The notes below the pieces were generated by a model. The model ran no database searches and was not told where the DNA came from. It saw only the letters and a program-made list of their open reading frames with translations. Shown one piece after another: positions 7,389 through 62,801 of a DNA stretch of 64,000 nucleotides. The translations under genes were made by a program, and so were the position numbers. Location of the stretch: contig CAVRAD010000009.1 in assembly GCA_963718845.1 (NCBI GenBank), positions 193,360 through 257,359 on the forward strand. Reading direction: 5' to 3'. This DNA comes from an uncultured Acidobacteriota bacterium. GTDB lineage: Bacteria > Acidobacteriota > UBA6911. The stretch's first letter is position 1. Each line of letters starts with the position of its first letter.

Positions 7389-10224
7389 GTGACACTCGAC
7401 ATAAAGAATACTCTTAATCTGCCAAAGACATCCTTCAGCATGAAGGCGAATCTGCCACAGCGCGAACCGGAAATGCTGCGGCACTGGGACAAGATTGATG
7501 TGTACGCCAGGATCCGCAAAGCCCGCGCCGGATCTCCCGGGTATGTCCTTCATGACGGTCCTCCCTACGCCAACGGCGCCATTCACATGGGCACCGCCAT
7601 GAACAAGATCATCAAGGACATAATCGTAAAATCGCGCTCGATGATGGGCTTCGACGCTCCGTACGTCCCCGGATGGGACTGCCACGGGCTCCCCATCGAA
7701 ATCAAAGTCGAGGAACAGCTGGGGCCGAAAAAGGCGCAGATGAGCAAAGTGGCCATCCGCCGCGAGTGCCGCAAATACGCCGAGAAATTTATCGAAGTGC
7801 AGCGCCAGGGATTCAAGCGCCTGGAAGTATTCGGCGAGTGGGCCAATCCCTACCTGACCATGAACTATCAGTACGAAGCGGATATCGCCCGCGCTCTGGG
7901 CGAATTTGTGGACAAGGGTCTGGTATATAAAGGGCTCAAGCCGGTTCACTGGTGCTTCTCCTGCAAAACCGCGCTGGCTGAAGCCGAAGTGGAATATGAA
8001 GACCACACAAGTCCGTCGATCTACGTCGCGTTTCCCGTCGAGTCGGATCTGTCCGATATCGACCCGAATCTCTCCGGCAAAGACTGGTCGGTCGTTATCT
8101 GGACCACGACCCCGTGGACGCTGCCCGCCAATCTCGCAATCGCTTTCCACCCGGAGTATCAGTACTCCGCCGTGCGCGTGAACGGCAAAGGCTACATCAT
8201 TGCCACGGAATTGCTCAAAACCGTTTCCGAAAAACTCGGATGGAGTGAACCCCGGGAAGTGGCCCGGTTCCAGGGCAAGGCGCTTGAAAGGCGCAAGGCG
8301 CGCCATCCCTTTATCGATCGGGAATCGCTATGCGTATTGGGAAATTATGTGACGCTCGATGCCGGCACCGGTTGTGTGCATACGGCTCCCGGACACGGCT
8401 ACGACGACTATGTCACGGGCGTCCACTACGGGCTCGATGTTTTCTGCCCCGTCGATGATGCCGGCAAGTTCCCGAGCAGTGTGGAACGGTTTGCAGGATT
8501 GGAGGTTTTTGAGGCCAATCCGAAGATTGTGAACTACATGCGCGAAACCGGCGTCCTGCTATATACGGAAGATTTCAGCCACACCTATCCTCACTGCTGG
8601 CGTTGCCATAAGCCGGTGATCTTCCGCGCAACCCCGCAATGGTTCATCGCCCTGGATAAAAACAATTTCCGGCAAAACGCGCTGGAAGCGATCCAAAAGG
8701 TACGTTGGATCCCCTCCTGGGGCGAAGAGCGCATCGGCAATATGGTGCGCGAACGGCCCGACTGGTGCATTTCGCGCCAGCGCGCGTGGGGAGTGCCGAT
8801 CGTCGCGTTTTACTGCAAAGCCTGCGACCAGGTCCTGCTGCGCAAAGACATTATCGATCACGTCGCCTCCATCTTTGCGAAGGAGGGAGCGGATGCATGG
8901 TATGCCCATACTCCGGCGGAGCTGCTGCCGCAGGGGACGGTCTGCGCCCAGTGCGGAGAAAACGATTTCCGGCAGGAGTTCGATATCCTTGATGTCTGGT
9001 TTGATTCCGGCAGCAGCCATCTCGCAACCTTGGGTGCCCGCCCGGATCTCCCCTGGCCGGCCGACCTCTATATCGAGGGCGGAGATCAGTACCGCGGCTG
9101 GTTTCAGAGTTCGCTGCTGATCGCAGTGGCCTTGCGCGGCGCGGCGCCCTATCGCGCCGCCATCACGCACGGCTGGACCCTGGATGAAAAAGGCCGGGCG
9201 ATGTCCAAATCGAAAGGGATCGGCATCGATCCGAACGATCTTGTCAAAGCCAGGGGCGCGGAAATCGCGCGCCTCCTTGTGAGCTCCGTAAGCTACGTCG
9301 AAGATGTGCGCATATTCGACGAACTGCTCGACCGGCTCGGCGAAGCGTATAGGAAAATCCGCAACACGTGCCGGTTTATGCTGGGCAACCTGAGCAATCA
9401 GCAGGATGCCAAACATCCGCACTTCAATCCTGAAACCGATCGCGTGCCCTATGACCAGATGCTCGAAATCGACCGCTGGGCGCTGGCGCGGAAAGGAACG
9501 CTCATCCAGAAGTGCCTCAAGGGCTACGAGGACTACCAGTTCCATCAGGTCTACAGTGCCCTGTACAATTTCTGCACTGTCGACATGTCGGCTTTCTATC
9601 TCGATATCCTGAAAGACCGGCTCTACACTTCCGCGACGCATTCCCTGGCACGGCGCTCGGCGCAGACGGCGCTCTGGGAAATCCTCGACGCCTTCACGCG
9701 CCTCATCGCCCCGATCCTGTCGTTTACCAGCGAAGAGGTGTATCACGCCATGTACGAAGGCTGCCCGCCGGAGACCCGGTCCGCTTCCGTGCACGAACTG
9801 CTCTTCCCGAAGTATGACGATGATGCAGGATGCCGAGTACCTCCTGGCGGAATGGGAAAAGCTGCGGACTGTGCGCGAGTCGGTCCTGAAATCCCTGGAG
9901 GAAGTCCGGCAAAGCGGAACCATCGGCAACTCGCTCGAGGCCAAGATAGTGATCCGCGCTTCCGGCGAAACCGCCGCGCTTCTGCGGCGCCATGAAAACG
10001 ATCTGAGATTTATTTTTATCGTCTCCCAGGTTGCCGTCGAGGAGTCTTCGGGGGCAGAGGAAAGCCTGCAAATTGAGGTTTTAAAGGCGGCGGGATCAAA
10101 GTGCGAACGGTGCTGGAACTACTCCGTCGAAATCGGCAAAGACAGCGACTGGCCGACGCTTTGCGAGCGCTGCATACCAGCCATAAACGAAATTGACGAA
10201 TTGACGAATGACGAATACGATTGA
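7389..10224 (+). CDS. ileS: Isoleucyl-tRNA synthetase (type 1), frameshifted near 9820-9830
   Basis: HDGPPYANG/HMGT (HIGH), WCISRQR, AMSKS. The C-terminal Zn finger KCERCW..LCERC is in the second ORF (9814..10224). GTG start at 7389 after an AGGAG. Confidence 0.95.
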
Positions 10225-10272
10225 CGAATGACTCCAATCGTAATCGTAATTCGTAAATCGTAAATCGTAAAT
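10195..10272. repeat. Inverted heptamer cassette (GACGAAT)n ... (AATCGTA)n
   Basis: The left array overlaps the ileS stop and encodes its last residues; the right array is in the opposite orientation. Confidence 0.75.
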
Positions 10273-10284
10273 TGTGACAATTTA

Positions 10285-10806
10285 ATGATAAAAAACAGAT
10301 ATTACTTTGTTGCCTTCATCATTCTCCTTGTCGATTACCTGACAAAATGGGTTGTGCGGGTGAGGCTGGATCCGATTCAGTCCGTCGAAATCATACCGGG
10401 ATATCTGCGACTGTCATACTGGCAGAATTCGGGTGTGGCGTTCGGGTTATTCGATGCGGTCGCGTCCGTTTGGAAACCTTACATTTTGGCTGCGCTGGCA
10501 GTCGTGGCCGTCGTGGCCATTGTCGTCTACGGCGCGCATATGCCGCCGGAACGCAAACTCCTGCGGGCCTCGCTCGCCGTCATCATAGGCGGAATTCTCG
10601 GCAACTTCGTGGACCGCATCGTGCGCGGATACGTCATCGATTTTATTGACTTTCACATCTACGACACTTTTCACTGGCCGACTTTTAATGTGGCGGATTC
10701 GGCCATTACCATCGGCATTGCGCTGCTCCTGATCGACACCGTCAAGAATCCGGCGGTAAATCCTGCTGCAAAGGAAGATGCGGAGACCGTGAGCGGTCGA
10801 GAATAA
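10285..10806 (+). CDS. lspA: Lipoprotein signal peptidase
   Basis: NSGVAFG, GGILGNFVDR, VIDFI, FNVADSAI; ileS-lspA synteny. Confidence 0.96.
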   Translation: MIKNRYYFVAFIILLVDYLTKWVVRVRLDPIQSVEIIPGYLRLSYWQNSGVAFGLFDAVASVWKPYILAALAVVAVVAIVVYGAHMPPERKLLRASLAVIIGGILGNFVDRIVRGYVIDFIDFHIYDTFHWPTFNVADSAITIGIALLLIDTVKNPAVNPAAKEDAETVSGRE

Positions 10807-10854
10807 TGGAGATTGGGAAACGCAGAATTCAGGAGCCAGAATTCAGGAGCCAGA

Positions 10855-11540
10855 ATGCGATCGCTGTTTCATGCCGGATCCTGGGCAGTCTTGCTCCTTT
10901 TCGTCTCCGTGTTCTTTCTGATGATCGCCACACCGATTCCTTCTCTGTCGACCTGGAGGCGGTGGCGGCGGGATTGCAGCAGCGATACGCATCCGCAGTA
11001 ACCATGAGCGGGAGTTTTCAGCAGACGTATCGCGCTCCCGGAATTGAGCAGATCGAATCGGGAGTTTTCCGGATGAAGCGTCCCGGCCTTATGCGCTGGG
11101 AGTATCGCCTGCCTGAGGCAAAACTGTTTGTCGCCGATGGACGAGAAGCCTTCCTCTACGTTCCATCGGATCGCCAGGTCACGATCCAGTCTTTCAGTGC
11201 CTCGGATATGCGCGGCACGCCGCTGGAATTTTTGCTGGGCGGCATGGATATCCGTAAGAGCTTTGTCGTTTCATGGGAAAACAATTTCAGGCCGACAGGG
11301 GAACCGACTCTGCTGATCCGGTTGACGCCCCGCAGCGGCCAAAGCGAATATGAATTCCTGGTCCTGGCGATTGATCCGAAGATCTATGAACTCCGCCGCA
11401 TCACCATGCACGAACACGGAGGCAACACCTCGGAATTCCGTCTGTCGAACCTGACGGCGAATGCAAAGATAGACAACAAAGAATTCCAGTTTAAGCCGCC
11501 GAAGGGAACAGAAGTCATGCGCCTGGAAGAGGGAAAATAG
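10855..11540 (+). CDS. lolA: Outer-membrane lipoprotein carrier LolA, frameshifted near 10945
   Basis: A signal-peptide-like N-terminus (MRSLFHAGSWAVLLLFVSVFFL) joins FQQTY...KRPGLMRWEY..KLFVADG..FQFKPPKG in another frame. Confidence 0.85.
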
Positions 11541-11618
11541 ATTCCAGATTCCAGATTCCAAATTCCAGACTGAACAAACGAATCCGGAATTCGGAATCGG
11601 AATCCGGAATCCGGAATC
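11538..11618. repeat. Inverted heptamer cassette (AGATTCC)n ... (GGAATCC)n
   Basis: Begins at the lolA stop and ends just before the suhB start. Confidence 0.85.
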
Positions 11619-11625
11619 AAATATC

Positions 11626-12457
11626 ATGTTGAATATTGGTGAATGTGCCGAACTTGGAGAGACCGTCGCGCGGGAGGCCGGGCGTATTCTGCTTGAGAGT
11701 TTCCGGACGGATTTTGCCGTAGAGCACAAGGGCACGGTGAATCTAGTGACGGAAGTGGATCTGGCGGCAGAGGAATGGATCGTCTCGCGGATCCGCAAAG
11801 CTTTTCCGTCCCATTCTATTCTTGCCGAAGAGAAGCACAGCAGTGCGCCCGCGGGAGATATTCGCTGGGTCATTGATCCGCTGGATGGGACAACGAATTA
11901 TGCCCACGGATACCCGACATTCGGCGTATCGATCGGGCTCGAAGTGGGCGGGGAACTGGAGTGGGGCGCGTGTATTCGATCCCGTCAGGGACGAACTATA
12001 CACGGCGCGCAGAGGAGGCGGTTCCTTCTGCAATGGTGTGCCGCTGCATGTTTCAAAAGTTGCCGTGCTCGATGCCAGTCTACTTGCGACCGGGTTCCCG
12101 TACGACATCCGGACCGACAGCCAGACCAATCTTGAAAATTTTTGCGCTTTCGCCCTGCGGACGCAGGGACTGCGGCGCAGCGGATCGGCAGCGCTGGATT
12201 TCTGCAGCGTCGCTGCCGGTCGTCTTGACGGCTTTTGGGAACTCAAGCTTAATCCCTGGGATTGTGCCGCAGGATATCTGATGGTGCGCGAGGCTGGCGG
12301 AATGGTGACGAATTTCCGCGGCCAGCCCGGCTCCATCTATGACCGCGAAGTCGTGGCCTCCAACAAGCCTCATTCACGGGGAAATATTGGCGGTATTGGA
12401 AACTACAAGTAAACGGATTCCAGATACGTCTGATTCCGGATTCCGGATTCCGGACTA
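11626..12457 (+). CDS. suhB: Inositol monophosphatase family (SuhB), two apparent frameshifts (~11965, ~12363)
   Basis: WVIDPLDGTTNY, LATGFPY, RRSGSAALD, WDCAAG split over frames. A one-base correction near 12363 restores ASNSLIHGEILAVL; the end coordinate is approximate. Confidence 0.88.
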
Positions 12458-12500
12458 AGCAAACTGGAATCAGGAATCAGGAATCTGGAAATCAGGAATT
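12415..12500. repeat. Inverted heptamer cassette (GATTCCG)n ... (GGAATCA)n
   Basis: Lies between suhB and yqeY. Confidence 0.8.
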
Positions 12501-12508
12501 GAGGGTTT

Positions 12509-13163: not shown

Positions 13164-13169
13164 TAGTTT

Positions 13170-14997: not shown

Positions 14998-15170
14998 CAA
15001 AGGGGTAAAGGGGTAAAGGGGTAAAGAGGGAAAGGGTACCGTGTCCTGGGAACGCCGCCGTCTCGGCGGCTCTTTGTCGAAAAAGCCGAACAAAGGCCAA
15101 TATTGCACTATTTTGTTTGGAAATTGCGATTGCCAGCAGCCGGCTGGTGGGACGGAGTTCCCAGGACGGT
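14998..15170. repeat. Octamer run (AAAGGGGT)n plus a REP-like inverted pair
   Basis: AAAGGGGT x3-4 after uvrC, then CCTGGGAAC (15046) ... GTTCCCAGG (15157) with an internal GCCGCCG/CGGCGGC hairpin. Confidence 0.65.
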
Positions 15171-17243: not shown

Positions 17244-17368
17244 GATGCCTCCATCAGTCAAATATAATACCATGATTCCAGACATCCAGAATCCGGAATC
17301 AGGAATCCGGAATCATTTTAGATTCTATCATTCAGTATTTATGATTATGTGATACCCTACTAATAGTT

Positions 17369-28384: not shown

Positions 28385-29338
28385 ATGAGAGTTGTAATCA
28401 CGGGTGGAGCCGGATTCCTGGGAAGCCATTTATGCGACCGTCTGTTGGATGCGGGAAACGAGGTGATCTGCCTTGACAACCTTTCGACTGGAAGCGTGGA
28501 CAACATTGCGCACTTGCTGGGACATGAACGTTTTCGCTTCTATAACCACGACGTTACAGAATACATCTTTATCGGACAACCCGTGGACGCCGTCCTGCAT
28601 TTTGCCTCCCCGGCCAGCCCGCGCGATTATCTGGAGATGCCGATACAGACTCTGAAGGTCGGGGCTCTCGGCACGCACAAAACCATCGGCCTGGCAAAAC
28701 ACGCAAAGGCTCGATTCCTGATGGCGAGCACTTCGGAAACATACGGGGATCCTCTTGTGAATCCGCAACCGGAGAGCTATTGGGGCAACGTGAATCCCAT
28801 TGGCAGCCGGGGCGTCTACGACGAAGCGAAGCGCTTCGCGGAAGCACTGGTGATGGCCTATCACCGGTATCATGGCGTTGATACGCGCATTGCGCGCATC
28901 TTCAATACCTATGGGCCACGCATGCGTCCTCACGACGGCCGCGTGGTGTCGAACTTCATCGTGCAGGCGCTCCAGGGCGAGCCGTTGACTGTCTACGGCA
29001 GTGGTGAGCAAACGCGCAGCTTTTGTTTCGTGGAGGATGAAGTCGAGGGACTGGTCCGACTTCTGATGGCGCCGAACGCCGAAGATGTTCATCTGCCCGT
29101 GAACATCGGCAATCCGCATGAATTGACGGTGCTTGGAATTGCCGAAAAAATCATCGAGCTCAGTGGTTCGAAGAGCAGAATACTATTTGAGCCCTTGCCT
29201 GAAGACGATCCCAAAGTCCGCCGCCCCGATATTTCCCGCGCGAACCAACTGCTCGGCTGGAGCCCCAAAATATCTTTGGACGAAGGTCTGCAGCACACCA
29301 TCGACTACTTTCGCTTAAAGCTCAAGAATACAGAATAA
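28385..29338 (+). CDS. UDP-glucuronate decarboxylase-like extended SDR
   Basis: [46 protein letters not shown]. Confidence 0.93.
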
Positions 29339-29397
29339 TCAGAGTACGGAATGCCTCATAGTTTTTTGGGGGCGAAGCCTTCGGAGTGCGTCAGCAA

Positions 29398-29567
29398 GCT
29401 CTGAACCTTATACGCATCTCCGGCATCCTAAACCAGCAAATCATGTGGGTCGGGGCTTCAGCCCCGACGCTTTGGAGATGTCAAGCATGGTCGGAAAGTG
29501 TCGGGGCTGAAGCCCCGACCCACATGTTCTTGTTTACAATGAGCAAGATGCGTATAAGGTTCAGAGC
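29398..29567. repeat. REPIN-like element: two inverted REPs inside a 22-bp perfect inverted repeat
   Basis: GCTCTGAACCTTATACGCATCT / AGATGCGTATAAGGTTCAGAGC enclosing ATGTGGGTCGGGGCTTCAGCCCCGAC and GTCGGGGCTGAAGCCCCGACCCACAT. Confidence 0.82.
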
Positions 29568-29715
29568 AATCTGTCTCTGAAGGCGCCCTATGGGCGCAAT
29601 AACTATGCGGCATTAGGCGCCGCGCCGCCCGCTACAAAAGCCCGTGAGAAATGTGGGCTAGTGTGTGGTCTGGGCCGTTTTATTCTGTGATATGATCCAT
29701 CCCCGGAGGCGATGC

Positions 29716-30885: not shown

Positions 30886-31010
30886 CTTGCTTCTATCCGA
30901 CTGAAAAATCGGGGTCGGGTATAGAGTTTTGAAGCTGCAAAACAATTCCGATAGCGATACCGATTCCGAAAACCCGGAGTGATGGTTCTTAATTAGTGAG
31001 AAGGAGTTGG

Positions 31011-36328: not shown

Positions 36329-36466
36329 TAGGACGTTTTATTTTTAGTTGGGGCATACCGTGTCCACATATTCAAAACGAATTATCATAGCAGCATTCCC
36401 CGAACCCCAAATAAAGAGGCTTCAGAATACAATCATACTGAGCCGACAGCCGACAGCTGATAGCTT

Positions 36467-39660: not shown

Positions 39661-40477
39661 TATCGAATTACGAATTACGAATGACGAATGACGAATTATT
39701 TGTATCCGGCATTATCCGGATCGTAGCCGCTTCATGCAAAGGTATGTTTCAATTCGTCATTTGTCATTCGTAACTCGTCTCGTAATTCAGTTCCCTATTG
39801 TTCGGAATAATCAGAATGCAACGGTTTCATGCAAAAGTATGTTTCAATTCGTCATTCGTCATTCGTAACTCGTACATTCGTAATTCAGTTCCTGTATTGT
39901 CCTGAATAATCAGAATGCAACGGTTTCATGCAAAAGTATGTTTCAATTCGTCATTCGTCATGCGTCATTCGTAATTCAGTTCCTGTATTGTCCTGAATGA
40001 TCAGAATGCAACGGTTTCATGCAAAAGTATGTTTCAATTCGTCATTCGTCATGCGTCATTCGTAATTCAGTTCCTGTATTGTCCTGAATGATCAGAATGC
40101 AACGGTTTCATGCAAAAGTATGTTTCAATTGTCATTCGTCATGCGTCATTCGTAATTCAGAATTCCCTTTGTCCGGTGAATGATCAGAATGCAACGGTTT
40201 CATGCGAAAAGTATGTTTCAATTCGTCATTCGTCATGCGTCATTCGTAATTCAGTTCCCTATTGTCCTGAATAATAGAATGCAACGGTTTCATGCAAACG
40301 TCATGCTCAATTCGTCCTCCATTATCGAATTACGAATTACGAATTACGAATTACGAATTACGAATTACGAATTACGAATGACGAATGCTCACGAATTACG
40401 AATTAATTGTTTCCGGCATTATCCGGATGCAACCGCTTCATGCAAAAGTATGTTTCAATTCGTAATTCGTCATTCAG
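39661..40477. repeat. ~820-bp compound repeat: two copies of an inverted-heptamer cassette bracketing about six tandem ~91-bp units
   Basis: CAGAATGCAACGGTTTCATGC recurs at ~39812, 39911, 40002, 40093, 40185 and 40275; (GAATTAC)n runs at 39664 and 40327. Confidence 0.93.
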
Positions 40478-41368: not shown

Positions 41369-41642
41369 AGAGGCGGCATTATCCCGCGTGTGCCGCAGGA
41401 GCGTCAAGAGGGGATGCGATGGGTATGCTACGGCGTGCCTTAGTCGGGTATTCGGTAAAGGATGGGAATTTCGTTGTTTTCGGGACAAGGAGTCAGGAGC
41501 CAGAAGTTGGGAGTCAGAATTGAATCCAGAATCCAGCCGAATAATCCGCTGTAACTTTTTGGAGTTTTGATATAAAAGCAACGGGATTGAGAACCAAACA
41601 GGGCACAGAATCATAGTAAATAGAACAAAAGGAGGATCCTCC

Positions 41643-43651
41643 ATGAAACGAGCGCTTTTTATTCTTATATGGCTGTGTGCTTTGGTTATGCCTCTCATCG
41701 CACAACAGCCGCCGATCATCGATCGCGAGCTTTTTTCGGCGACCCCGAAATAACCAATGCTCAGATATCGCCCGACGGAAAGTACATCGCCTTTATCAAG
41801 CCATGGAACAGCACGCGGAATATCTGGGTAAAAAAAACCGAGGAGCCGTTTGACAAGGCCAAATTGGTAAGTGTCGATACGAAGAGGCCAATCCCAGGAT
41901 ACATGTGGAGCCGCGACGGCAAATACATTCTCTTCGTCCAGGATAAAGCGGGCGATGAGAATTATAACGTTTTTGCCGTCAATCCATCCGATGCTCCCCC
42001 TCCAGGCGAAGCAGCACCTTCTGCCCGGAATATCACGCCAGTGTCGGGTGTGCGCGCTACGCTCTATGCCGTCCCACGGTCGGAGCCTGATGCTCTTTAT
42101 GTGGGACTGAATGACCGCGATAAAGCCTGGCACGATCTCTATAAAATTAAAATCTCTACGGGAGAGCGGACACTCCTCAGGCAGAATAAAGATCGCATTA
42201 CGGGCTGGATTTTCGACAACAAAGACCAACTCCGCCTAGCGACGCGTTCTACCGATGCGGGAGACACAGAGATCCTTCGCGTCGATTCGGGAGAATTGAA
42301 GAAGATCTATGCATGCAGCGTTTTCGAGTCGTGCGATCCCAAGGTTTTCAGCAAAGATGACCAACATGTCTACATCGCGACCAATCATGGGAATAACGTG
42401 GATCTCGTGGGGCTAGAGTTGCTCGATCCGCAGACGGGAGCGACTCAAGTTTTTGAATCCGATCCACTGAAGCGGATGGATTTGGGGGGTGTTCTGGTAT
42501 CGGAACTGAACCATGAGCTGCTTGCTACCGCGTATGCTGACGACAGAGTTCGGCTTTACTGGAAAGATAAATCCTATGAAGCCGATTATAAACTTCTCCA
42601 GAAGAAACTGGGTGATAAACAAATCGAATTCGGTTCACATACCGATGATGAGCGCCTCTGGCTGATCGGCGCTTCCAGCGACACAGAGCCGGGCGAGACG
42701 TACCTGTTCGATCGCCGGACCAAACAGTTGACGCTGCAATACCGCATTCGCGAAAGACTTGAGCGGAAATATCTGGCATCGATGCAGCCGATCCGATTCA
42801 AGTCATCCGATGGTATGGAGATTCCTGCGTACTTGACCCTCCCAAAAGGTTTAGCGCATAAAAATCTGCCTGCAATCCTTGTGCCCCATGGCGGGCCATG
42901 GGCGCGTGACAGTTGGGGATATAACGAACTTGTCCAGTTTCTTGCCAACCGGGGCTATGCCATTCTGCAACCCAATTTCCGCGGATCGACCGGTTACGGT
43001 AAAAAATTCTTAAACGCCGGAAATCTGCAGTGGGGCGAGAAAATGCAGGACGATATTACCTGGGGGGCCAGATATCTCACAGAGAAAGGCATCGCCGACC
43101 CGAAGCGCATCGGGATTATGGGCGGATCCTATGGAGGCTATGCAGCGCTTGCAGGCGTGACCTTCACACCAGACGTATATGCTGCCGCTGTGGCCTACGT
43201 CGCGCCATCCAACCTTATTACGCTGATGGAGTCTATTCCTCCATACTGGGAACCGGTTCGCATCATGTTTTATAAACGCATGGGTGATCCGAACACCCCT
43301 CAGGGGAAGGCACAATTGGAACGTCAGTCTCCGCTGAACTCTGCCGCAAAGATCAAAACGCCCCTCCTGGTTGTTCAAGGAGCCAACGATCCTCGAGTCA
43401 ATAAACGCGAATCCGATCAGATCGTCATTGCGTTACGCGACCGGAAATTTCCGGTTGAGTATATTGTGGCCCCCGATGAAGGGCACGGCTTTGCGCGGCC
43501 GGTGAACGACATGGCGATGTATACGGCTGCAGAAAAGTTCCTTGCCAAACACCTGGGCGCACGTTATCAGGCGGGAGGGACGCCGGAAGTGATGACCCAT
43601 CTCAAAGAAATCACGGTGGATCCGGCCACGGTCGTTATATCCAAGCGATGA
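41643..43651 (+). CDS. S9 (prolyl oligopeptidase/acylaminoacyl) peptidase, frameshifted in the T-run near 41733
   Basis: Signal peptide MKRALFILIWLCALVMPLIAQQPPIIDREL joins FFGDPEI; HGGPW, GGSYGG, GANDPRV, DEGHG triad. Confidence 0.93.
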
Positions 43652-44050
43652 AGGCAAAACAGGAGAAAAGGAAATTGGATGTAGATTAGGGCTGACAAAG
43701 AGATGCGATTGAGTCTCTTATGTTTCTCTTAAATCCCCGAAAGTATTTTCAAGGGCGATGCAGGCAGACTGCGCCGCCCGTTCAGGGCGTACATATTTTC
43801 GCTCCCAACCCAGGGCTCTGAGATGCAGCCGCTTTGAGGCTGTCTCTTGTCTGACTCCTGTCTTCTGACTCCTGAATTCTGGCTTCTGACTCCTGTCTTC
43901 CAATGGTTTTTGTGGCAAAAAAGCGACAATCCGACTATATTGAGTGCGGACAGGCCCTGTTGAGTCGCAAGGGGCGGATGGTGTTTGGTAGGAAAGTACT
44001 TATATCGAAATATTGGAAATGGAAGCAACATTCAGTGCGAGGGATTGCCA

Positions 44051-45771
44051 ATGGCTAAATTATTAAGAATCAATTTGTCGGCTTTGAGCGCAACGACCGA
44101 GGATGTTCCGGAAGCGTATCGGAAATTCGGGGGCAGGGGGTTGACGGCGTGCATTATAGATCGTGAAGTGCCTCCGACCTGCGATCCCTTGGGCGCCGAA
44201 AACAAGCTTATCTGGGCGCCGGGGCTGATGGGCGGGACCACCGCTCCATGCAGCGGCAGGCTTTCGGTGGGAGCCAAAAGCCCGATGACCAAGGGAATCA
44301 AAGAATCGAATACGGGCGGAGCCATGGGCCAGAAATTGGCCAGGCTGGGATTCAAAGCGGTGATTTTTGAAGGGAAAGCAAAAGAACCGACCACGGTCAA
44401 AATAGATAAGTCGGGCGTGAGTTTCTGCTCCTCCGCTCCTCTTGCCGGTCTCGGATGCTATGAAATTATCGAAAAGCTGAGAAGCGAATATGGCGAAAAT
44501 GCCTGCTTTGGCTGTATCGGGCCGGCCGGCGATATGGGTCTTACGGCTGCATCGATCATGTTTACCACTCCCGATTTTCACATCCGGGTTGCCGCCCGAG
44601 GCGGATTGGGCGCCGTCATGGGCTCCAAAAACATGAAGGCCGTGGTCGTCGATGATGCCGGATCCAATCTTCTGGAAATAAAGGATCCGCAAAAGCTGAA
44701 AGGAAAACGTCTCTGCTATGACCAAAGGCGTTCTCGGGAACGCACTTCCTCGAAGGATTGAGACATCTGGGCACGCCGCAGATCGTCATGATCACGCAGA
44801 CCGCCGGCGCTTTGCCCACCAAGAACTTCACCATGGGACAGTTCGACAAAGCGGAGAGCCTCTCCGGCGAGTACATGGAGGAGTTGCTTAAGAAGCGGGC
44901 GAACGCGGAAACGGTGCACGCCTGCATGAAGGGCTGCATAATCAGCTGCTCCAATATCTATACGGATGAGAACGGCAAGTTTATTGTTGCCAGCATCGAG
45001 TACGAAACCATTGCATTGATCGGATCGAACTGCCTCATCGGGGACCTCGACATGGTTGCTCGCATCAACCGCGCCTGCAACGATGCCGGCGTGGACACCA
45101 TGGATGTAGGGTCCGCGCTCGCCGTCGCGATGGAGGGCGGATTGCTGCCGTGGGGAGACGCGGAAGGAGCTCTCAAGCTGGTGCAGGAGATCAATGTCGG
45201 AACGGAAAACGGCCGGATGATTGGCAGCGGAGCGAAAGTAACCGGTGAAAAGCTGGGAGTGAAGCGGATTCCGCACGTCAAAGGTCAGGCCCTGTCGGCC
45301 TATGATCCGAGAATCCTCAAGGGAACGGGCGTGACATTTGCCACGTCCCCTCAGGGCGCCGACCACACGGCCGGAATTGTGTTGCCCGGACCGCATCATC
45401 CTCAATACAGCCCGGTCGAACCCACCGGACAGGCGCCGGAATCGCGGTTCATGCAGCAATGGATGGCTGCCATCGATACGCTCGGCTACTGCATGATGAT
45501 CGGCATGACGTTTATGGAGGAGAAGGCCCAAAAACATCTTGACCTCAATATGATCGGGGGCTTATCTGCGGTCACCGGCGAGACGTATCCGGAAACGTAC
45601 GTCACGGATCTGGGCGCCGCGGTTCTCGAAATCGAGAGAAGGTTCAACAAAGCCGCGGGATTGACGGAAAAAGACGACCGTCTGCCGAAATTCTTTACGG
45701 AAGAAAAGTTCGGACCGGGTCAGTTTGTTTTTGATGTATCCACGGAAGAAATAGACAGCGTCCACAAATAG
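44051..45771 (+). CDS. aor: Tungsten-dependent aldehyde:ferredoxin oxidoreductase family, frameshifted around 44700-44750
   Basis: KSP.T.GIKESN.GG, AARGGLGAVMGSKN.KA, C..GC...C, EYET, D.G.DT, HVKGQ..AYDPR, GADHT, D.LG.C, DDRLP. Confidence 0.92.
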
Positions 45772-49314: not shown

Positions 49315-50679
49315 ATGAAAAATAGGTTGTTGCTGCTGATTCTTGTCTTCCTGCTGGCAGGGAATACCTCGTTTGCCGCTGAATCCTCCAGTCACGGCGA
49401 TCCGATAGCGCACGTGCTTATCATCTTGATTGCGATTTTGGCCGCAGCCAAAGTGGGCGGCGCCGTTGTAGAGCGTTTTGGCATGCCGGCGGTGCTTGGT
49501 GAACTCATCGGCGGAATTATCCTGGGAAACCTCGTACTGGTGAATCCCGCCTGGAGCTTTTTGGAGCCTTTGCGCATCACTCCCGTTGAGACGTACTGGG
49601 CGATTGCGGTGGACAGCCTGGCTCGCATCGGCGTGATTATTCTGCTATTTGAAGTCGGGCTGGAGTCGAGCCTTAAAGTGATGATGAAGGTAGGCGGCTC
49701 TTCCATGCTGGTCGCCGTAATGGGAGTTATCGCGCCATTCTTCCTGGGGTATTGGGCGAGCTGGCTTTTCATCGATCGTCTTCCGGCGGGGCTTGCGGGG
49801 CACGTCTCTGCCGGATTCAGCACTCACTATATCCATCTGTTTATCGGCGCCGTGCTTTGTGCCACGAGCGTGGGAATTACGGCGCGCGTATTCAAGGACC
49901 TTGGAAAGCTTCAGATGAAGGAGGCCCAGATCGTTCTGGGCGCGGCCGTCATCGACGATGTCCTGGGATTGATCGTTCTGGCTGTGGTTTCCGGAATCGT
50001 CTCCGCCGCGGAATTCGGCCAGCCTCTCGCACTTGGCGCCGTGATCCGCCTGGTTCTGGTGGCGCTGCTTTTCCTGGGCGGGACTTTGTTTGCCGGCTCA
50101 TTTCTTGTCCCGCGGATAATGAAGCAATTGTCCAGGCTGCGCACGAGCGGCATGATGCTTATTTCCGCATTGGGTTGTTGTTTTGCCCTGGCATATCTTG
50201 CCGATCTTACCGGATTGGCCCCGATTGTCGGCGCATTTGCTGCCGGCCTGCTGCTGGAGACGGTTCATTTCCGCGGATTCAACGAGGACATCCCGATTGA
50301 AAAGCTGATCAAGCCCGTCTCCACTTTTCTTGTCCCGATCTTTTTTGTGGTGATGGGGATTCAGGTGCGGCTTGAATCCTTTGCCAACATACCTGTGCTC
50401 GGACTGGCTGCCGCCCTGACTGTAGCCGCTATTGCAGGGAAGCAGATTTGTGGATTCGGGGTATTGGAAAAGAACCTGGATCGCCTCAGCATCGGCGTGG
50501 CCATGATTCCAAGAGGGGAAGTCGGCCTCATTTTTGCCAGCATCGGCAAGAATATGAAAGTGGTCGACGATTCAACCTTCTCGGCAATCGTCATCATGAT
50601 TATCGTAACAACCCTGATCACGCCGCCGATCCTCAAGCTGACGCTCGCGCGAAGCCAAAAGAAAATAGCCACCCATTGA
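49315..50679 (+). CDS. Cation:proton antiporter (CPA2, NapA-like)
   Basis: PAVLGEL, ATSVGITAR, AAVIDDVLG, GAFAAGL, MIPRGEVGL. Confidence 0.93.
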   Translation: MKNRLLLLILVFLLAGNTSFAAESSSHGDPIAHVLIILIAILAAAKVGGAVVERFGMPAVLGELIGGIILGNLVLVNPAWSFLEPLRITPVETYWAIAVDSLARIGVIILLFEVGLESSLKVMMKVGGSSMLVAVMGVIAPFFLGYWASWLFIDRLPAGLAGHVSAGFSTHYIHLFIGAVLCATSVGITARVFKDLGKLQMKEAQIVLGAAVIDDVLGLIVLAVVSGIVSAAEFGQPLALGAVIRLVLVALLFLGGTLFAGSFLVPRIMKQLSRLRTSGMMLISALGCCFALAYLADLTGLAPIVGAFAAGLLLETVHFRGFNEDIPIEKLIKPVSTFLVPIFFVVMGIQVRLESFANIPVLGLAAALTVAAIAGKQICGFGVLEKNLDRLSIGVAMIPRGEVGLIFASIGKNMKVVDDSTFSAIVIMIIVTTLITPPILKLTLARSQKKIATH

Positions 50680-50801
50680 TTCCTGATTCCGAATTCCAGA
50701 TTCCAAATTAACTAAAGCTTTTTGTTCGCTACCCAAAATCCGGAATCCAAAATCCGGAATCCGGAATCCGGAATCCGGAATCCGGAATCGGAATCGGAAT
50801 C
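50678..50801. repeat. Inverted heptamer cassette (GATTCCN)n ... (GGAATCC)n
   Basis: Starts at the antiporter stop; long AATCCGG run at 50737-50801. Confidence 0.87.
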
Positions 50802-51169: not shown

Positions 51170-51426
51170 AATTGAAATTCTCCTTCCCGATCAGCGTACT
51201 CACTGGTTTCCATGGCAATGCACGGCTTTGAACGTGATTATAGGATATTCTTTTTCAGGCCGGGAGAAAATTCTTCTCTGTGGTATTCTTTTAAGGAGCA
51301 AGGCTGAGCGGCCCTGCCGGAGGGTTTGAAGGATTTGAAGTTTTGAGAATCCCTTGGGATTGACTCTCCCGGAATCTTGAATCCGGAATCTGGAATCAGT
51401 TCCCTTTTAAATTATCTGGAAAGTTT

Positions 51427-52820: not shown

Positions 52821-52930
52821 GACACAGATTGCACAGATTGCACAGACAAGATTGCACAGAACTCATAAAATGCAGCAATGATTTGCGAAATCCGTGCAAT
52901 CTGTCTGTGCAATCCGTGTAATCTGTGTCT
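52820..52930. repeat. Inverted nonamer cassette (CACAGATTG)n ... (AATCYGTGY)n
   Basis: Ends AGACACAGAT / ATCTGTGTCT; fills the gap between the convergent cyclase and lpxC. Confidence 0.87.
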
Positions 52931-57695: not shown

Positions 57696-57714
57696 TTGGT
57701 TCCGAGATAACACC

Positions 57715-59194
57715 ATGATTCAGCCATCGTTAGACGAAGTAAAAGCAATTGCCGAGAAGGGATCCATTATTCCTGTCTGCAAGGATATTCTCGGAGATAT
57801 TCTCACTCCTGCCGCCGCATTCTTGCGCGTCGCCCACGGCCGCCGCAGAGTCTTTCTCCTGGAGAGCGTTGAAGGGGGCGAGCGACTGGCGCGGTATTCC
57901 TTCATCGGCTGGGATCCCTTTGTGGTGGTGCGCGGGAAGGGGAATTCCGTATCGATTGAGCGCCAGGGCGAGACTGTCTGCGAGGAAGCGCGAGGATTCG
58001 ACAAGCTCCGGCAGATATCCGGCAGCTTCAAGCCGGTGCCGATACCGGATCTGCCTCCATTCCTCGGCGGCGGTGTCGGGTATTTCGCCTACGATATCGT
58101 CCGCCAGTTTGAAAAACTTCCATCGGCAGCCGAGGATGATTTGGGATTGGATGATTACCAGGTGATGTATTTTTCCACCATCCTCGCTTTCGATCACCTG
58201 CAGCATCGAATTCACATCATCACCAATATCTTCAACGAACACGGGGTGAAAGGCATTGAAGCCAGGTACCAGGACGCTTTGCTGCGCATCGAGCAGATCG
58301 AAAAACGCCTGACGAGTCCCCTCTCGCTGCCTTCGCCGGTTCCCCAGACGTCGATTCCGGAACCGGAGTCCAACGTGAGCGAGGCTCAGTATTACGCCAA
58401 TATCGAAACAGCCAAATCTCATATTCTAGGCGGGCGATATTTTCCAGGTTGTATTATCGCAGCGCTTCGCGATGCAGATTAGTTGCGATCCCTTCGACAT
58501 CTATCGGGCGCTGCGCTTCATCAATCCCTCTCCGTATATGTTTTTTCTGCGGATCGACAATCTGCATCTCGTAGGCGCTTCTCCGGAGATGCTGGTCAAG
58601 GTGCGCGACGGGCGCGTCGAATACGGGCCGATCGCCGGCACGCGCCCGCGCGGCAGAACGCCGGAAGAAGACGCGCAACTCGGTCGGGAACTGCTGGCCG
58701 ACGAGAAGGAGCGGGCGGAACACATCATGCTGGTGGACTTGGGGCGGAACGACCTGGGCCGCGTCTGCGATTTCGGAACCGTCAAGGTGACCGATCTCAT
58801 GCGCATCGAAAAGTACAGCCACGTGATGCATCTCGTCAGCAGCGTCGAAGGCGTGCTGCGCAAAGATCTCGATTGCTTTCACGCGCTGGAATCCTGTCTC
58901 CCGGCCGGCACCGTGTCGGGGGCACCTAAGGTTCGCGCTATGGAAATTATCGAGGCGCTGGAGCCCCGTCGCAGAGGCGTTTATGGCGGAGCCGTAGGCT
59001 ATGTCGATTTCTCCGGGAATCTCGACACCTGTATCGCCCTGCGCACGCTTGTCATCAAGGATGGTGTTGCCTATATTCAGGCGGGAGGTGGAATCGTCGC
59101 CGATTCCCAGCCCCAAAAGGAACGAGAAGAATCGATTAACAAGGCCAGCGCACTGATTCGCGCCGTCAAATTTGCGCATGAAGGCCTAAAATGA
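57715..59194 (+). CDS. trpE: Anthranilate synthase component I, frameshifted near 58430
   Basis: [15 protein letters not shown], ([12 protein letters not shown]), [41 protein letters not shown]. Confidence 0.95.
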
Positions 59195-59318
59195 ATTACG
59201 AATTACGAATTACGAATGACGAATTAAAACATACAGTCTTTGAAGGGGTAACCTGGCTGCCAAAAAGTAACAGCTATTAGTCCATTATTTTTCAATTCGT
59301 CATTCGTCATTCGTCATT
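59193..59318. repeat. Inverted heptamer cassette between trpE and trpG
   Basis: (GAATTAC)3 GAATGAC, then AATTAAAACATAC (reverse complement of the GTATGTTTYAATT core) ... (TTCGTCA)3. Confidence 0.87.
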
Positions 59319-59333
59319 TGGTTGGGGGGGTAA

Positions 59334-59912
59334 ATGATTCTGGTTATTGATAATTATGATTCGTTTACGTTCAACCTGGTGCAATACCTGGGATCCATGG
59401 GGCAGGAGCTGAAGGTTTTTCGCAACGATGCCATTACGCTGGATGAGATTGAACGGCTGGCGCCGGAACGCATCGTCATTTCTCCCGGACCGGGCCGCCC
59501 GGAAAATTCCGGCATCATCATCCAGGTGATCGGGGAATTTTCCGGCAGAATACCAATCCTGGGCGTATGCCTGGGGCATCAGGCGATTGGCGCCGCCTTT
59601 GGCGGAGACGTCGTTTCAGCGCCGCAGATCATGCACGGAAAGACCAGTGAAATATTCCATGACGGCCGGACGATTTTCAAAGATCTGGCGTCGCCGTTTC
59701 GCGCGACGCGCTACCACTCCCTGGTGGTGTCGCCCTTAAACCTGCCGGACTGTCTGGAGATATCCGCGAAAACCGCCGATGGCGTCATTATGGGACTCCG
59801 TCATCGCGAACTGACTGTCGAGGGTGTGCAGTTTCATCCGGAGTCCATCCTGACGGATGTGGGAATGAAGCTGATTGCAAATTTTGTGAATTTAGGAACG
59901 ACGGTGCAATAA
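59334..59912 (+). CDS. trpG: Anthranilate synthase component II (glutamine amidotransferase)
   Basis: [33 protein letters not shown]. Confidence 0.95.
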
Positions 59913-59931
59913 AAAAAGATCGGATTTTGAT

Positions 59932-60819
59932 ATGCTGAAGACCCCAAGCGATTATCGGTTGCCCGCAGCCCTGAAGGATACGATCCTTGAAAAGATCATG
60001 CATGCCAAGGTGCGTGAACTCAAAGCAGCAATGAGCAAGTTTCCTGCCGGTTCCCTTGAAGAAGCGCTGGACCGGGCGCCGGAAATTCGTCCATTCAAAA
60101 AGGCGCTGGCGTCGCATGCGCCGGCCATTATTGCCGAAATTAAAAGAGCGTCTCCCTCGGCGGGAGTGATCCGGGAAGACTTCGATCCCGTGACGATCGC
60201 GGAGGAATACCGGAAATCCGGCGCAGCGGCGATTTCCGTTATTACGGAAGTGCATCACTTCCACGGCAGCCTGGAAATACTGGCGCGCCTGCGCTGGAAC
60301 GTCAAAATTCCTTTGCTGCGCAAGGATTTCATCGTCGATCCCTATCAGCTCCTCGAGGCGCGTCACGCGGGAGCGGATGCGGTACTGCTGATTGTCGCGC
60401 TCCTGGACACGGCTGCGCTGAAAAGCCTGCGCATGGAAGCGGAACGGTTGGGGATGGAGGCGCTGGTCGAAGTGCATAATGAATCAGAGCTGCAGTGTGC
60501 CCTGGATTCCGGCGCCACCCTGATCGGCGTCAATAGCCGCAACCTGCGCACTTTTGAGGTTTCTCTCGACATCTCTTTCGATCTTGCGCGCAGGATGCCC
60601 AAAAATGTGCTGGCAGTGGCGGAAAGCGGCATCCGCACATCCGATGATTTGCGCAGGCTTGCCGACGCCGGCTATCGGGGATTCCTCATAGGGGAGCATT
60701 TTATGCGCGCTCCGTCCCCTGGGGCGGCGCTGGCGGAGATGATTCGAAGATTCCAGATTCCTAGATTCCGAGATGAAAAACCACATGCAGACTGGGTGTC
60801 GTTTTTAGAAAATTGCTAA
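59932..60819 (+). CDS. trpC: Indole-3-glycerol phosphate synthase
   Basis: IAEIKRASPS.G, LRKDF, LVEVH, GVNSRNL, AESGI. The C-terminal tail runs into a repeat cassette. Confidence 0.95.
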   Translation: MLKTPSDYRLPAALKDTILEKIMHAKVRELKAAMSKFPAGSLEEALDRAPEIRPFKKALASHAPAIIAEIKRASPSAGVIREDFDPVTIAEEYRKSGAAAISVITEVHHFHGSLEILARLRWNVKIPLLRKDFIVDPYQLLEARHAGADAVLLIVALLDTAALKSLRMEAERLGMEALVEVHNESELQCALDSGATLIGVNSRNLRTFEVSLDISFDLARRMPKNVLAVAESGIRTSDDLRRLADAGYRGFLIGEHFMRAPSPGAALAEMIRRFQIPRFRDEKPHADWVSFLENC

Positions 60820-60907
60820 TTTGTCAGAGAGTATCTTCAATTCTGATCTCATGAGTGTTGTTAGTCTCGAATCTGGAATCTCGGAATCTCGGAATCAAGG
60901 TGCCCCT

Positions 60908-61543
60908 ATGAAGGTTAAAGTTTGCGGCATAACTAACTATGACGATGCCGCCATGGCCCTTGATGAGGGCGTGGATGCGCTGGGATTCAATTTTTTTTCG
61001 CGCAGCCCGAGATACATGCGTCCGGAAGATGCCCGGTCGATTATTCGGCGCATTCCGCCGCTTGTGGTCACGGTTGGACTTTTCGTAAATGTGGATGAGC
61101 CGGATCAGGTTTCCATGGCGGCACGCGCAGCCGGGGTCCAGGTCCTGCAGCTCCATGGCGATGAGACTCCGGAGTACTGCCGGGCGTTGGCGGACTGGAC
61201 ATTGATCAAGGCGGTACGCATAGGCGAAAACGGCATTCCATCCGGTCTCGAAGAATATCCCGTGCAGGCATTTTTGTTGGATGCCAGGGACGACGTTCTT
61301 TTCGGCGGGACAGGAAAATCATTTGACTGGAGTCTTGCGCGGGAGATGCAGTGCATCCGTCCCATCATATTGGCGGGAGGGCTCCGGCCCGACAATGTGA
61401 GGGAAGCGATCCGGGTGGTGGCGCCGTATGGCGTGGATGTCTGCAGCGGCGTCGAATGCGCGCCCGGGAAAAAAGATGCCGCCAGGTTAAGGCAATTTAT
61501 GGATGAGGTGAGAAATGTCGACAGTGTGCTTCACCGGCCCTGA
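60908..61543 (+). CDS. trpF: Phosphoribosylanthranilate isomerase
   Basis: [34 protein letters not shown]. Confidence 0.95.
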
Positions 61544-62723
61544 TGAACGTGGGCGTTATGGTTCCTACGGGGGACGATTCGTCCCCGAGACGTTGATGGG
61601 GCCTCTCCAGGAGCTCGAAGATGCGTATCGCGCGGCGGCCCAAGATCCGCGCTTCCATGCGGAGTTGAACGATCTGCTGCGGAATTACGTGGGCCGCCCG
61701 ACGCCGCTTTCGCCGGCGCGGCGCATCGCTTCTCACATAGGCAAAGGACGCATCTATCTCAAGCGCGAAGACCTGACTCACACGGGCGCGCACAAGATCA
61801 ACAACGCGATCGGCCAGATCCTGCTTGCCCGGCGCATGGGCAAAACGCGTATCATCGCCGAAACCGGGGCGGGGCAGCACGGAGTGGCGACCGCGACGGC
61901 GGCGGCTCTTTTCGGCATGGAATGCGAGATTTATATGGGAACGGAGGATATGCGCCGCCAGTCCCTGAACGTTTTCCGGATGCGTTTGCTGGGCGCGAAG
62001 GTCAGGCCGGTGGACTCAGGCAGCTGCACGCTCAAGGATGCCATCAACGAAGCGATGCGGGATTGGGTGACCAACGTGGCCAATACCCATTACCTGCTGG
62101 GATCGGTCCTGGGAGCTCATCCGTATCCGTGGATCGTGCGCGATTTTCAATCCATCATCGGCAGGGAAGCGCGCGCTCAAATCCTCGAGGCCGAAGGGCG
62201 CCTGCCGGATCTGCTCATCGCCTGCGTAGGCGGAGGGAGCAATGCGATCGGGCTCTTCCACGATTTTTTGCGCGAGCCGGACATTCGCATGATAGGCGTG
62301 GAAGCGGGAGGCAGAGGAACGGCTTTGGGCGAACATGCCGCCCGTTTCAGCGGCGGCCGGACAGGCGTTTTGCAGGGAACCTACAGTTATGTTCTGCAGG
62401 ACGAGAATGGACAGGTTGCGGGTACCCATTCCGTTTCAGCCGGGCTGGACTACCCCGCGGTAGGTCCCGAGCATTCTTGTCTGCATGATCAGGGCCGCGT
62501 GCAATATACCTCCATCACGGATGACCTTGCGCTGGAGGCATTCCAGCTCCTGAGCCGAAAAGAAGGAATCATTCCGGCGCTGGAAAGCGCGCATGCGATC
62601 GCGGAACTGATCCGCATGGCTCCGGAACTGGAAAAGGACACGCTCGTTATCGTGAACCTTTCGGGCCGCGGCGATAAGGATGTGAATCAGGTGGCCGAAT
62701 TACTTGCAGCCGATAGTCGTTAG
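61515..62723 (+). CDS. trpB: Tryptophan synthase beta chain
   Basis: [44 protein letters not shown]. Confidence 0.97.
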
Positions 62724-62801
62724 TCGAGTCGGCATGAAAGCTTATGGTTGTCACTGCCGACTGCCGACTTTTTTCCTTTTTCCAAAGAAGGAACATGTGA
62801 G

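Follow-up and report, generated by a model that had tools for sequence, protein, structure and literature searches.

Inverted short-repeat cassettes at the gene junctions of an uncultured bacterium share their units with arrays around PF05635 genes

Here we examined a stretch of 64,000 nucleotides from an uncultured bacterium (hereafter the window; G000:C9:193360-257359, G000 being the source genome and C9 the contig), in which tandem arrays of short units sit at gene junctions, each typically followed by a spacer and by an array of the reverse complement. We propose that these cassettes belong, as gene-less copies, to a family of hairpin-bounded insertion cassettes found throughout the genome, in which the copies that do carry a gene enclose a PF05635/TIGR02436 gene for a small four-helix-bundle protein, and we give this proposal an even chance of being right. 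The arrays are paired head to head with a fixed polarity, their copy number has a mode, they lie close behind stop codons, they share their units with the arrays around the genes, they turn over between species, and their period matches the family of the enclosed gene.

An excess of heptamers in many bacterial genomes has long been known, without an accepted cause, and the PF05635 and GxxExxY protein families have no known function. G000 gives a handle on both, in that it holds hundreds of cassettes of fixed polarity and a few gene-bearing copies built from the same units, while sister species range from none to more than 1000 array matches and array period goes hand in hand with the family of the enclosed gene. 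Should the proteins recognise the arrays, two orphan families would gain a testable function and the intervening sequences of rRNA an origin. Housekeeping operons (trp, ileS-lspA) have cassettes within them, whose long stems could affect how the mRNA is processed, and cassettes are likely to break short-read assemblies.

Pairing, polarity and position of the arrays

Arrays were called with Tandem Repeats Finder (TRF) in the window and in the whole assembly of G000 (4.21 Mb, 23 contigs, 54% G+C, 84% completeness). TRF returned 2120 merged tandem arrays, 902 of them of period 7, and 740 of these 902 lie mostly outside gene calls, which for all junction statistics were crude in-house calls covering 79% of the genome. 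Among arrays whose period is 6-9 and whose copy number is 2.5 or more, a partner being an exact (period+3)-mer match within 400 bp, 486 of 1169 had a reverse-complement partner, compared with 76 that had a direct partner and 8 in each of the reverse-only and complement-only controls; the inverted pairing first described for the window is therefore a property of the genome. Neighbouring arrays within 300 bp of each other gave the same picture (259 inverted pairs, 42 direct, 8 both, 101 unrelated and 88 of differing period). A strict script that accepts spacers below 250 bp found at least 250 short cassettes genome-wide. Such counts are underestimates, because the script finds 8 cassettes in the window where at least 16 are recognised by eye; it misses those with sister-unit arms (e.g. 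at 11539, 50678 and 59193). The window itself is rich in arrays: it has 47 of period 6-9, about twice the genome mean, which is 23 per 64 kb.

Within each unit family one polarity prevails almost without exception: CCAGATT 50:0, AATTACG 31:2, CCTGATT 19:0, ACAGGTT 17:0, AATGACG 16:1, GACGATT 15:0 and CCGGATT 11:0, and 235 against 5 when summed over the 26 unit families with at least two cassettes. This is not an effect of gene orientation, because a cassette of the form X...rc(X) reads identically on both strands. The motif GRWT is contained in 614 of 817 heptamer units, as opposed to 19% of random heptamers, and the main units form a series of single-base steps (GATTCCN, GATTCGA, GATTGAC, GAATGAC, GAATTAC), to which GGTTNCA is to be added. 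A universal rule of polarity founded on the GRWT core was considered and dropped, since GATTC/GAATC carries GRWT on both strands and GATTCCC pairs elsewhere are opposite. The latter were obtained by scanning a single genome of each species for (GATTCCC)x4, which gave at least 125 stretches; among the 80 loci examined (Xanthomonadales, Gemmatimonadaceae, cyanobacteria, Thermoanaerobaculia and others), 75 arrays were solitary and all 5 paired cases had GGGAATC on the left, whereas G000 has GATTCCN on the left. Polarity is therefore not dictated by the unit sequence, and its reversal would be easier to reconcile with descent from founders particular to each lineage than with a chemical constraint valid everywhere. 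An enzyme that added repeats at DNA breaks, extending both 3' ends with units to leave X...rc(X) and filler, would also give a fixed polarity together with variable spacers, and the fold of the four-helix bundle has a relative in Avd, which partners a reverse transcriptase (bAvd Pfam matches). We find this barely credible, given that polarity is not set by the unit (5 of 5 GATTCCC pairs opposite), that conserved inner repeats and spacer subfamilies exist, and that the genome holds only one weak reverse transcriptase fragment, with no arrays beside it.

The aligned stem has a median length of 29 bp with 8.9% mismatches (250 cassettes). Heptamer copy number peaks at 4.25-4.75, a class that takes in 257 of 817 arrays, with a tail that reaches 24 copies, and the two arm lengths of a cassette are uncorrelated (r = 0.04). 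That arms vary independently, that units change by single bases and mix within arrays, that neither a transposase nor a target duplication was recognised beside them, and that 75 of 80 long (GATTCCC) arrays listed elsewhere are solitary would all be expected if slippage simply favoured heptamers and inverted pairs arose by chance or hairpin-templated copying, without any element or protein. Yet local slippage alone is decidedly unlikely, as it accounts neither for a polarity of 235:5, for partner counts of 486, 76 and 8, and for a mode near 4.5 units, nor for the near all-or-none distribution among congeners, the periods of 7 and 9 by gene family, and the conserved inner repeats and spacers. 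The preliminary description had suggested a dedicated spreading mechanism in place of simple slippage; polarity, modal arm length and the match between period and gene bear out the second half of that claim, while the spreading mechanism is something that we infer.

With respect to position, the 143 co-directional cassettes follow the stop codon at a median distance of 14 bp and precede the next start by a median of 77 bp. As many as 49 of them lie within -4 to +4 of the stop codon end, in agreement with the earlier remark that cassettes often begin at a stop codon, and 4 lie within 5 bp of a start. At trpE-trpG, for example, the first unit starts with the TGA stop, and a G-rich ribosome-binding stretch is retained behind the right arm. 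A cassette is present in 10.9% of the intergenic regions between convergent genes, in 6.6% of tandem ones and in 6.3% of divergent ones.

A place behind stops and a higher frequency between convergent genes (10.9%) are what one would expect of RNA hairpins selected as terminators, 3'-end stabilisers or RNase III sites, and long stems are predicted for six window cassettes (z -3.4 to -5.3). A T-run stands behind 19 of 143 co-directional cassettes, compared with 190 of 2610 intergenic positions drawn at random, an excess in the same direction, but with 87% of cassettes lacking it most are not intrinsic terminators, and cassettes occur in divergent regions too. Moreover, sense-strand arm mismatches are of G.U type in 88 cases and of A.C type in 85, and wobble pairs are therefore not preferred. 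Arms match their own partner no better than the partners of other cassettes (mismatch 5.2% and 5.3% for GAATKAC, 8.9% and 8.9% for GATTGAC, 9.6% and 10.5% for GGTTACA); the 6.7% own against 10.9% other of the lumped GATTCCN family reflects only a shared sub-unit. Complementarity is therefore a by-product of both arms sharing one unit, we see no sign of selection for RNA pairing, and hairpins as the selected feature are very unlikely. G-quadruplexes, which have been suggested for heptamers elsewhere, find no run of three G in the main units GATTCCA, GAATTAC, GATTGAC and GGTTACA. Slippage, selected RNA hairpins, break-end addition and G-quadruplexes fit the data less well than does a family of insertion cassettes.

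Most spacers are unrelated. Similarity clustering of the 185 spacers that are 25 nt or longer put 83 of them into 10 clusters, in part through array spill-over; real spacer sub-families are nevertheless present, with copies lying either way round. An inner inverted repeat, GAAACATAC...GTATGTTTC, marks the GAATKAC family, in which at least two interiors of 45 nt recur, and 8-9 GATTCC-armed cassettes on contigs C6 and C9 (e.g. C6:99347-99572) have in common a 120-nt interior of 77-87% identity, again in both orientations. We rejected this interior as a gene or an RNA, since no frame is open in all copies and the consensus fold is weak; two peptides read from the spacer had no NCBIfam match.

Genes enclosed by the same arrays

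A profile search found eight TIGR02436 matches in G000, five of them full length and, as had been stated beforehand, none in the window. Inverted arrays flank seven of the eight:

(AAAGGATT) and (CCTTTAAT)
(GTTGCAG)x12 and (TGCAACC)x24
(TGATTCC) and (GGAATCT)
(GATTCCA) and (TCTGGAA)
(GAATTAC)... and (TAATTCG)
(GCAGTCG) and (ACTGCCG), with extra DNA
(GCGTGAT) and (ACGCAAC)

Six of the flanking units (GATTCCA, GATTCCT, GAATTAC, GGTTGCA, AAAGGATT and GCAGTCG; that is, all but GCGTGAT) are abundant units of empty cassettes, with identical polarity. A link between such arrays and TIGR02436 genes, put forward in the preliminary description for other genomes, thus holds in G000 for unit families of the window type. 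The enclosed genes encode products of 110-130 aa, which Pfam confirms as PF05635 (23S rRNA intervening sequence protein), with weaker bAvd matches. Examples are the genes at C9:49442 (GATTCC arms), C12:55011 (GAATTAC arms) and C10:300607 (GGTTGCA arms). Among solved structures, 2gsc (Xanthomonas campestris XCC0516) and 2rld come nearest, and both entries were deposited as five chains. The largest expansion that we saw, an 8-mer (AGGATTAG) repeated about 85 times over 693 bp (G000:C6:104759-105451), sits 360 bp upstream of the four-helix-bundle gene with AAAGGATT 8-mer arms. Other open reading frames (ORFs) in the 250-1200 bp between matching arrays were rejected as cargo, being ordinary genes between two cassettes (rpsQ, xseB, queF and a thioesterase); three further small enclosed ORFs had no family, and one of 185 aa had a Pfam match far below threshold.

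The association extends to relatives. TIGR02436 matches are present in 23 of 30, and among 28 four-helix-bundle loci (two of them from an unpublished genome, G028, neither with a pair) 16 have a strict inverted pair, 11 have one-sided or non-matching arrays, several at contig ends, and 1 has none; a flanking array of some kind stands at 32 of 33 loci. Beside TIGR02436 genes, 67 of 80 arrays are of period 7 and one is of period 9 (33 loci, two from G028). The GxxExxY family, TIGR04256, has no match in G000, which is 84% complete, but is multi-copy in 13 of the 30 relatives. There, 23 of 28 loci (G028 excluded) have flanking arrays, 9 of them as a strict inverted pair, and the 47 arrays concerned are of period 9 (28), 8 (9), 10 (8) and 6 (2), and never 7. 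The GxxExxY link of the preliminary description therefore holds in relatives, with arrays of about 9 bases in place of heptamers, and array period goes with the family of the enclosed gene (67 of 80 against 0 of 47 of period 7). On this basis the 9-mer cassette of the window (52823-52928), whose arms have the right period, would be of the GxxExxY type. In addition, AATCCGTGG arrays in G000 are identical to the unit around a GxxExxY gene of a relative, G002.

Since no PF05635/TIGR02436 ORF lies inside them, we file the window cassettes as gene-less relatives, rather than members, of the gene cassette class. The preliminary description had suggested that they could be empty, non-autonomous forms of an uncharacterised mobile or regulatory system; the link to gene-bearing cassettes holds good, although the system is not altogether new, as paired inverted heptamer arrays near the upstream ORF were already described in Xanthomonas (PMC4692102). 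A broader proposal, which we put forward tentatively as possible rather than probable, is that PF05635 and GxxExxY proteins, two families unrelated to each other, may each be the maintenance or recognition factor of their own array cassette (7-base and about 9-base, respectively). Copies with a gene and the much larger number without one would then make up a selfish repeat system, not recognised before, that depends on a protein, has the rRNA intervening sequences with an ORF as a special case, and explains the bacterial heptamer excess.

Cassettes of the window and their turnover between species

TRF places arrays at, or within about 20 bp of, nearly all the positions given in the preliminary description, and its count of more than 15 loci, most with an array, a spacer and a reverse-complement array, is sustained (at least 16 inverted cassettes by eye), as are the junctions within ileS-lspA, trpE-trpG, trpC-trpF and trpB-trpA. 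The sites are as follows (left arm/right arm; z, RNA fold):

10191-10232/10236-10272: ileS-lspA cassette; left arm a mix of GAATKAC and GATTGAC, 3-nt loop, right arm AATCGTA-type; z -3.35
11539-11569/11580-11618: lolA-suhB-like cassette beginning at a TAG stop; (AGATTCC)x4.4, 10-nt loop, (GAATCCG)x5.7; z -5.28
12432-12454/12466-12499: cassette; (GATTCCG)x3.3 and (GGAATCA)x4.7; z -4.86
12954-12994/13132-13163: cassette upstream of uvrC; (GAATTAC)x4.7, 145-nt spacer, (AATTCGT)x4.6
17277-17315: nearly one-armed site in a divergent intergenic region; (GAATCNG)x5, the left arm being about one GATTCCA unit
18646-18699/18719-18741: hexamer cassette; (ATCGGN)x8.7 and (ACCGAT)x3.8
21097-21134/21182-21224: hexamer cassette; (GTGGAC-type)x6.3 and (GTCCAC-type)x7.2
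26033-26065/26126-26142: cassette; (ATTGACG)x4.7, 60-nt spacer, (AATCGTC)x2.4; z -4.58
about 30907-30969: weak hexamer pair, ATCGGG-type and CCGATA-type, from TRF and sequence reading
36441-36457: lone short arm, (AGCCGAC)x2.4, no partner seen
39664-40475: composite; (CGAATTA)x5, spacer, five 91-bp units, (ATTACGA)x11.6, spacer, (AATTCGT)x2.7
41490-41536 and 43850-43900: far-apart arrays, degenerate (GGAGTCA) and (CTGACTC-type)x7, flanking a peptidase gene (41669-43651, 660 aa)
49101-49123/49182-49211: hexamer/13-mer pair; CTATCG-type and ATCGCAATCGATC
50678-50709/50737-50801: cassette with an expanded right arm; (GATTCCA)x4.6 and (AATCCGG)x9.6
51369-51397: lone arm, (CCGGAAT)x4.1
52823-52846/52904-52928: 9-mer cassette; (CACAGATTG)x2.7 and (CAATCTGTG-type)x2.8
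59193-59226/59295-59318: trpE-trpG cassette beginning at a TGA stop; (GAATTAC)x4.9, 68-nt spacer, (ATTCGTC)x3.4; z -5.12
60748-60774/60865-60896: trpC-trpF cassette; GATTCC-type arms, spacer of about 90-100 nt (90 as counted from the TRF arms, 100 by script); z -3.69
62718-62769: small trpB-trpA pair followed by a T-run; AGTCG-type and (ACTGCCG)x2.4, from sequence reading

A few one-armed sites had been noted and are found at 17277-17315, 36441-36457 and 51369-51397, one-armed or nearly so. The listing of 41490 and 43850 as a cassette has to be withdrawn, as the two arrays lie 2.3 kb apart around the 660-aa peptidase gene and form no short cassette.

Comparison with other species shows that cassettes come and go, that arms grow and shrink, and that units drift in single-base steps (GAATTAC, GAATGAC, GATTGAC). 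Across 17 congeners the trpE-trpG junction varies from 15 to 285 bp. It carries GAATKAC arms in two (G000 and its closest compared species, G005), GATTGAC arms in five and decayed arms in two or three, and no recognisable cassette in seven (15-64 bp), among them the array-rich G010, so that both the presence and the unit of this cassette are polymorphic; the trpG-trpC junction is short in all 17. Three outcomes had been named beforehand as fatal to the preliminary reading (no enrichment of inverted pairing or junction position, no gene family ever enclosed, no presence/absence polymorphism in relatives), and none of the three was observed. Joints in sequencing runs at 59216-59301 stem from other cassettes with the same arms and differing short spacers, and not from this site. 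Contig C82 of G005 is collinear with the window over 24029-64000 at about 80% identity, and has cassettes at the same junctions with another spacer, with another unit, or in one genome only. At trpC-trpF the arms are the same and the spacer is unrelated, at 39664-40475 a single 136-bp GATTGAC-armed cassette replaces the composite of about 760 bp, and at 50678-50801 the cassette is shorter.

On a wider scale, matches to a four-unit GRWT pattern number from 0 to 1439 per genome (31 genomes, with G028) and track the number of TIGR02436 matches (Spearman 0.74, and 0.84 within the genus); the seven genomes that have no TIGR02436 match have 0-8 pattern matches each.

The main rival keeps the link between protein and array and drops mobility: the arrays would be host-selected sites for a regulator or insulator, possibly the four-helix-bundle protein itself, with the gene autoregulated by its own sites and nothing moving. 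The retention of unit and head-to-head layout at trpC-trpF in G000 and G005, where spacers have wholly diverged, speaks in its favour, as do the position behind stops, the period that goes with the gene family, and the equal complementarity within and between cassettes, by which an arm looks like an array of sites and not like half a stem. We nevertheless think it improbable, because seven of 17 congeners do without the trpE-trpG cassette and five have almost no arrays, which makes the arrays dispensable, because dispersed copies share spacers, and because copy number varies widely, with as many as 24 units of a heptamer or 85 of an 8-mer.

Should the cassettes instead be insertions, as we propose, the family would have spread from founder cassettes, either through copying or through recombination for which the many identical arrays served as guides. 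The enclosed protein, a pentamer-forming relative of Avd, would recognise its own array and so keep unit sequence and period, and arrays of about 9 bases would play the equivalent role for GxxExxY genes. By analogy with intervening sequences, the arms in a transcript would pair as stems of 25-35 bp that are then cut or stabilised, which would uncouple the two sides of an operon.

Several points weigh against this proposal. Mobility is what we infer rather than what the comparisons show, and recognition of the arrays by the protein is wholly conjectural. No target-site duplication was recognised at trpE-trpG or at the G000/G005 junctions, where identity is about 80% and the ends cannot be placed exactly. 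Spacers of different loci are at most 87% identical (over 122 nt), and no recent copies were seen; spacers at orthologous G000/G005 cassettes are unrelated, which may be plain divergence at about 80% identity. A tblastn search of 185 empty spacers found no remnants of the four-helix-bundle gene. Three weak matches to the Y1 transposase family (PF01797) in the genome have no heptamer arrays within 1.5 kb, nor, as said, does the sole reverse transcriptase fragment have any beside it. Relatedness among the genomes confounds the link between array and gene counts, the array-rich congeners being mostly the nearest, and the GRWT counting pattern was derived from G000 itself. Finally, the 23S rRNA gene (C20:146637-149650) contains neither an array nor an inverted repeat of at least 16 nt. 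About 285 nt behind this gene, at C20:149935-150054, lies a roughly inverted pair, (GCGTTCA)x4.9 and (TGAAACC)x6.

Other features of the window deserve mention. The 91-bp higher-order unit of the composite consists of a heptamer arm and 63 nt, and repeats of this kind (about 91 bp, an arm and a constant stretch of about 63 nt) occur at two loci, 39731-40316 of the window and G000:C20:4795-5909. The segment 41428-44033 (2.6 kb, with the 660-aa S9-type peptidase gene), whose two bounding arrays are inverted with respect to each other, is represented in G005 by 209 bp that keep only a stretch resembling the right arm; it may be a large cargo between arms, or the difference may be a deletion ending at an array. 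An 8-mer array (AAAGGGGT)x4.8 stands directly behind uvrC (14999-15036); this unit forms seven arrays genome-wide and also adjoins GATTCC cassettes on contig C17. Behind trpA, in a junction of 165 bp that measures 18 bp in G005, a 44-bp unit is repeated twice (63634-63720, 76% match), a kind of repeat unlike the cassettes. The 339-bp junction at 29337-29677 holds a long palindrome on GTCGGGGCTTCAGCCCCGAC with flanking inverted stretches, is not a tandem-array cassette, and corresponds to 128 unrelated bases in G005.

The window comes probably from the Acidobacteriota, judging by its sequence, which has two facing Acido-Lenti-1 RNA matches (5981-6025, plus strand, 43 bits; 6053-6095, minus strand, 38 bits) and a match to an acidobacterial VWA family (1e-57). 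The RNA pair is the sole Rfam match in the window, and the scan found no Rfam family at the cassettes. A cyanobacterial origin, with HIP1, was rejected, GCGATCGC showing no enrichment. Overlapping frames split trpE (57715-59194), a suhB-like gene (11626-12412) and an aldehyde:ferredoxin oxidoreductase-like gene (43985-45771). Metagenome contigs over the window omit one base at 58427/58428 and one at 44699, and at least two of the splits therefore look like assembly errors and not pseudogenes.

Comparison with known repeat systems

In a search of mostly openly accessible literature we found no paper that links inverted heptamer arrays to PF05635 or GxxExxY genes. Several known systems resemble the cassettes in part. 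Repetitive extragenic palindromic (REP) sequences, bacterial interspersed mosaic elements (BIME) and REPIN-RAYT systems comprise hundreds of short intergenic palindromes at gene ends, a few of which flank a Y1 transposase gene that is thought to maintain them. The likeness lies in the many short copies at gene ends and the few that flank a gene; however, the flanked gene there is a Y1 transposase and the repeat a single palindrome, whereas in G000 the gene is that of a helical bundle, the arms are tandem and Y1-like genes lack arrays. Miniature inverted-repeat transposable elements (MITE) are likewise non-coding and dispersed, with terminal inverted repeats and sub-families with common interiors. 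Unlike them, the cassettes show no recognisable target-site duplication at the junctions compared and have no parent insertion sequence with a transposase, their interiors are mostly unrelated, and their ends are arrays of variable length.

Tandem heptamers also make up the short tandemly repeated repetitive (STRR) sequences of cyanobacteria. Direct TAACTGA heptamers occur in Beggiatoaceae and cyanobacteria, and PMC4679880 gives, for a Beggiatoaceae genome, 169 sets that are direct and 1 that is inverted, most arrays lying upstream of start codons. These repeats and STRR resemble the arrays of G000 in being many-copy intergenic tandem heptamers of patchy phylogenetic spread, but TAACTGA arrays, as reported there, are direct and mostly upstream of starts, in contrast to the inverted pairs behind stops seen here. 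To explain the excess of heptamers, slippage and G-quadruplexes are quoted in PMC4679880 and PMC4692102.

The 23S intervening sequence of Coxiella burnetii, as presented in PMC4990558, has a 28-bp stem with an S23p ORF within its loop, and RNase III cuts midway along the stem; the same source cites a Leptospira case and regards such sequences as selfish and of unexplained origin. The gene-bearing cassettes of G000 are like these ORF-bearing intervening sequences in that a PF05635 ORF lies in a loop closed by a long inverted-repeat stem. They differ from what that source describes in location, since intervening sequences occupy helix 45 (or 25) of 23S rRNA, whereas the cassettes are found between protein-coding genes and no insert interrupts the 23S gene of G000; in their arms, which are tandem arrays and not terminal inverted repeats; and in number, with at least 250 empty cassettes against 8 gene matches.

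The closest parallel is that of the GGGAATC heptamers of Xanthomonas (Rehm et al. 2015, PLoS One, PMC4692102). According to the text searched, these are 89-93% intergenic, are read as G-quadruplex formers, lie 28 nt from the upstream and 160 nt from the downstream ORF, and form 70-75 inverted pairs per genome with stem-loop potential, their length and sequence varying between close species; that text reports no general association with mobile elements and does not name the S23/four-helix-bundle gene. G000 likewise has intergenic tandem heptamers nearer the upstream ORF and often in inverted pairs, and the Xanthomonas unit, as given in that text, is the fourth member of the GATTCCN series of G000. 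Against this, Xanthomonas has one G-rich unit in the account consulted and G000 has dozens, mostly free of G-runs, and the polarity of the five paired GATTCCC cases examined is the reverse of that in G000. A PF05635 structure, 2gsc, comes from X. campestris, and the link between array and gene may therefore hold in Xanthomonas as well.

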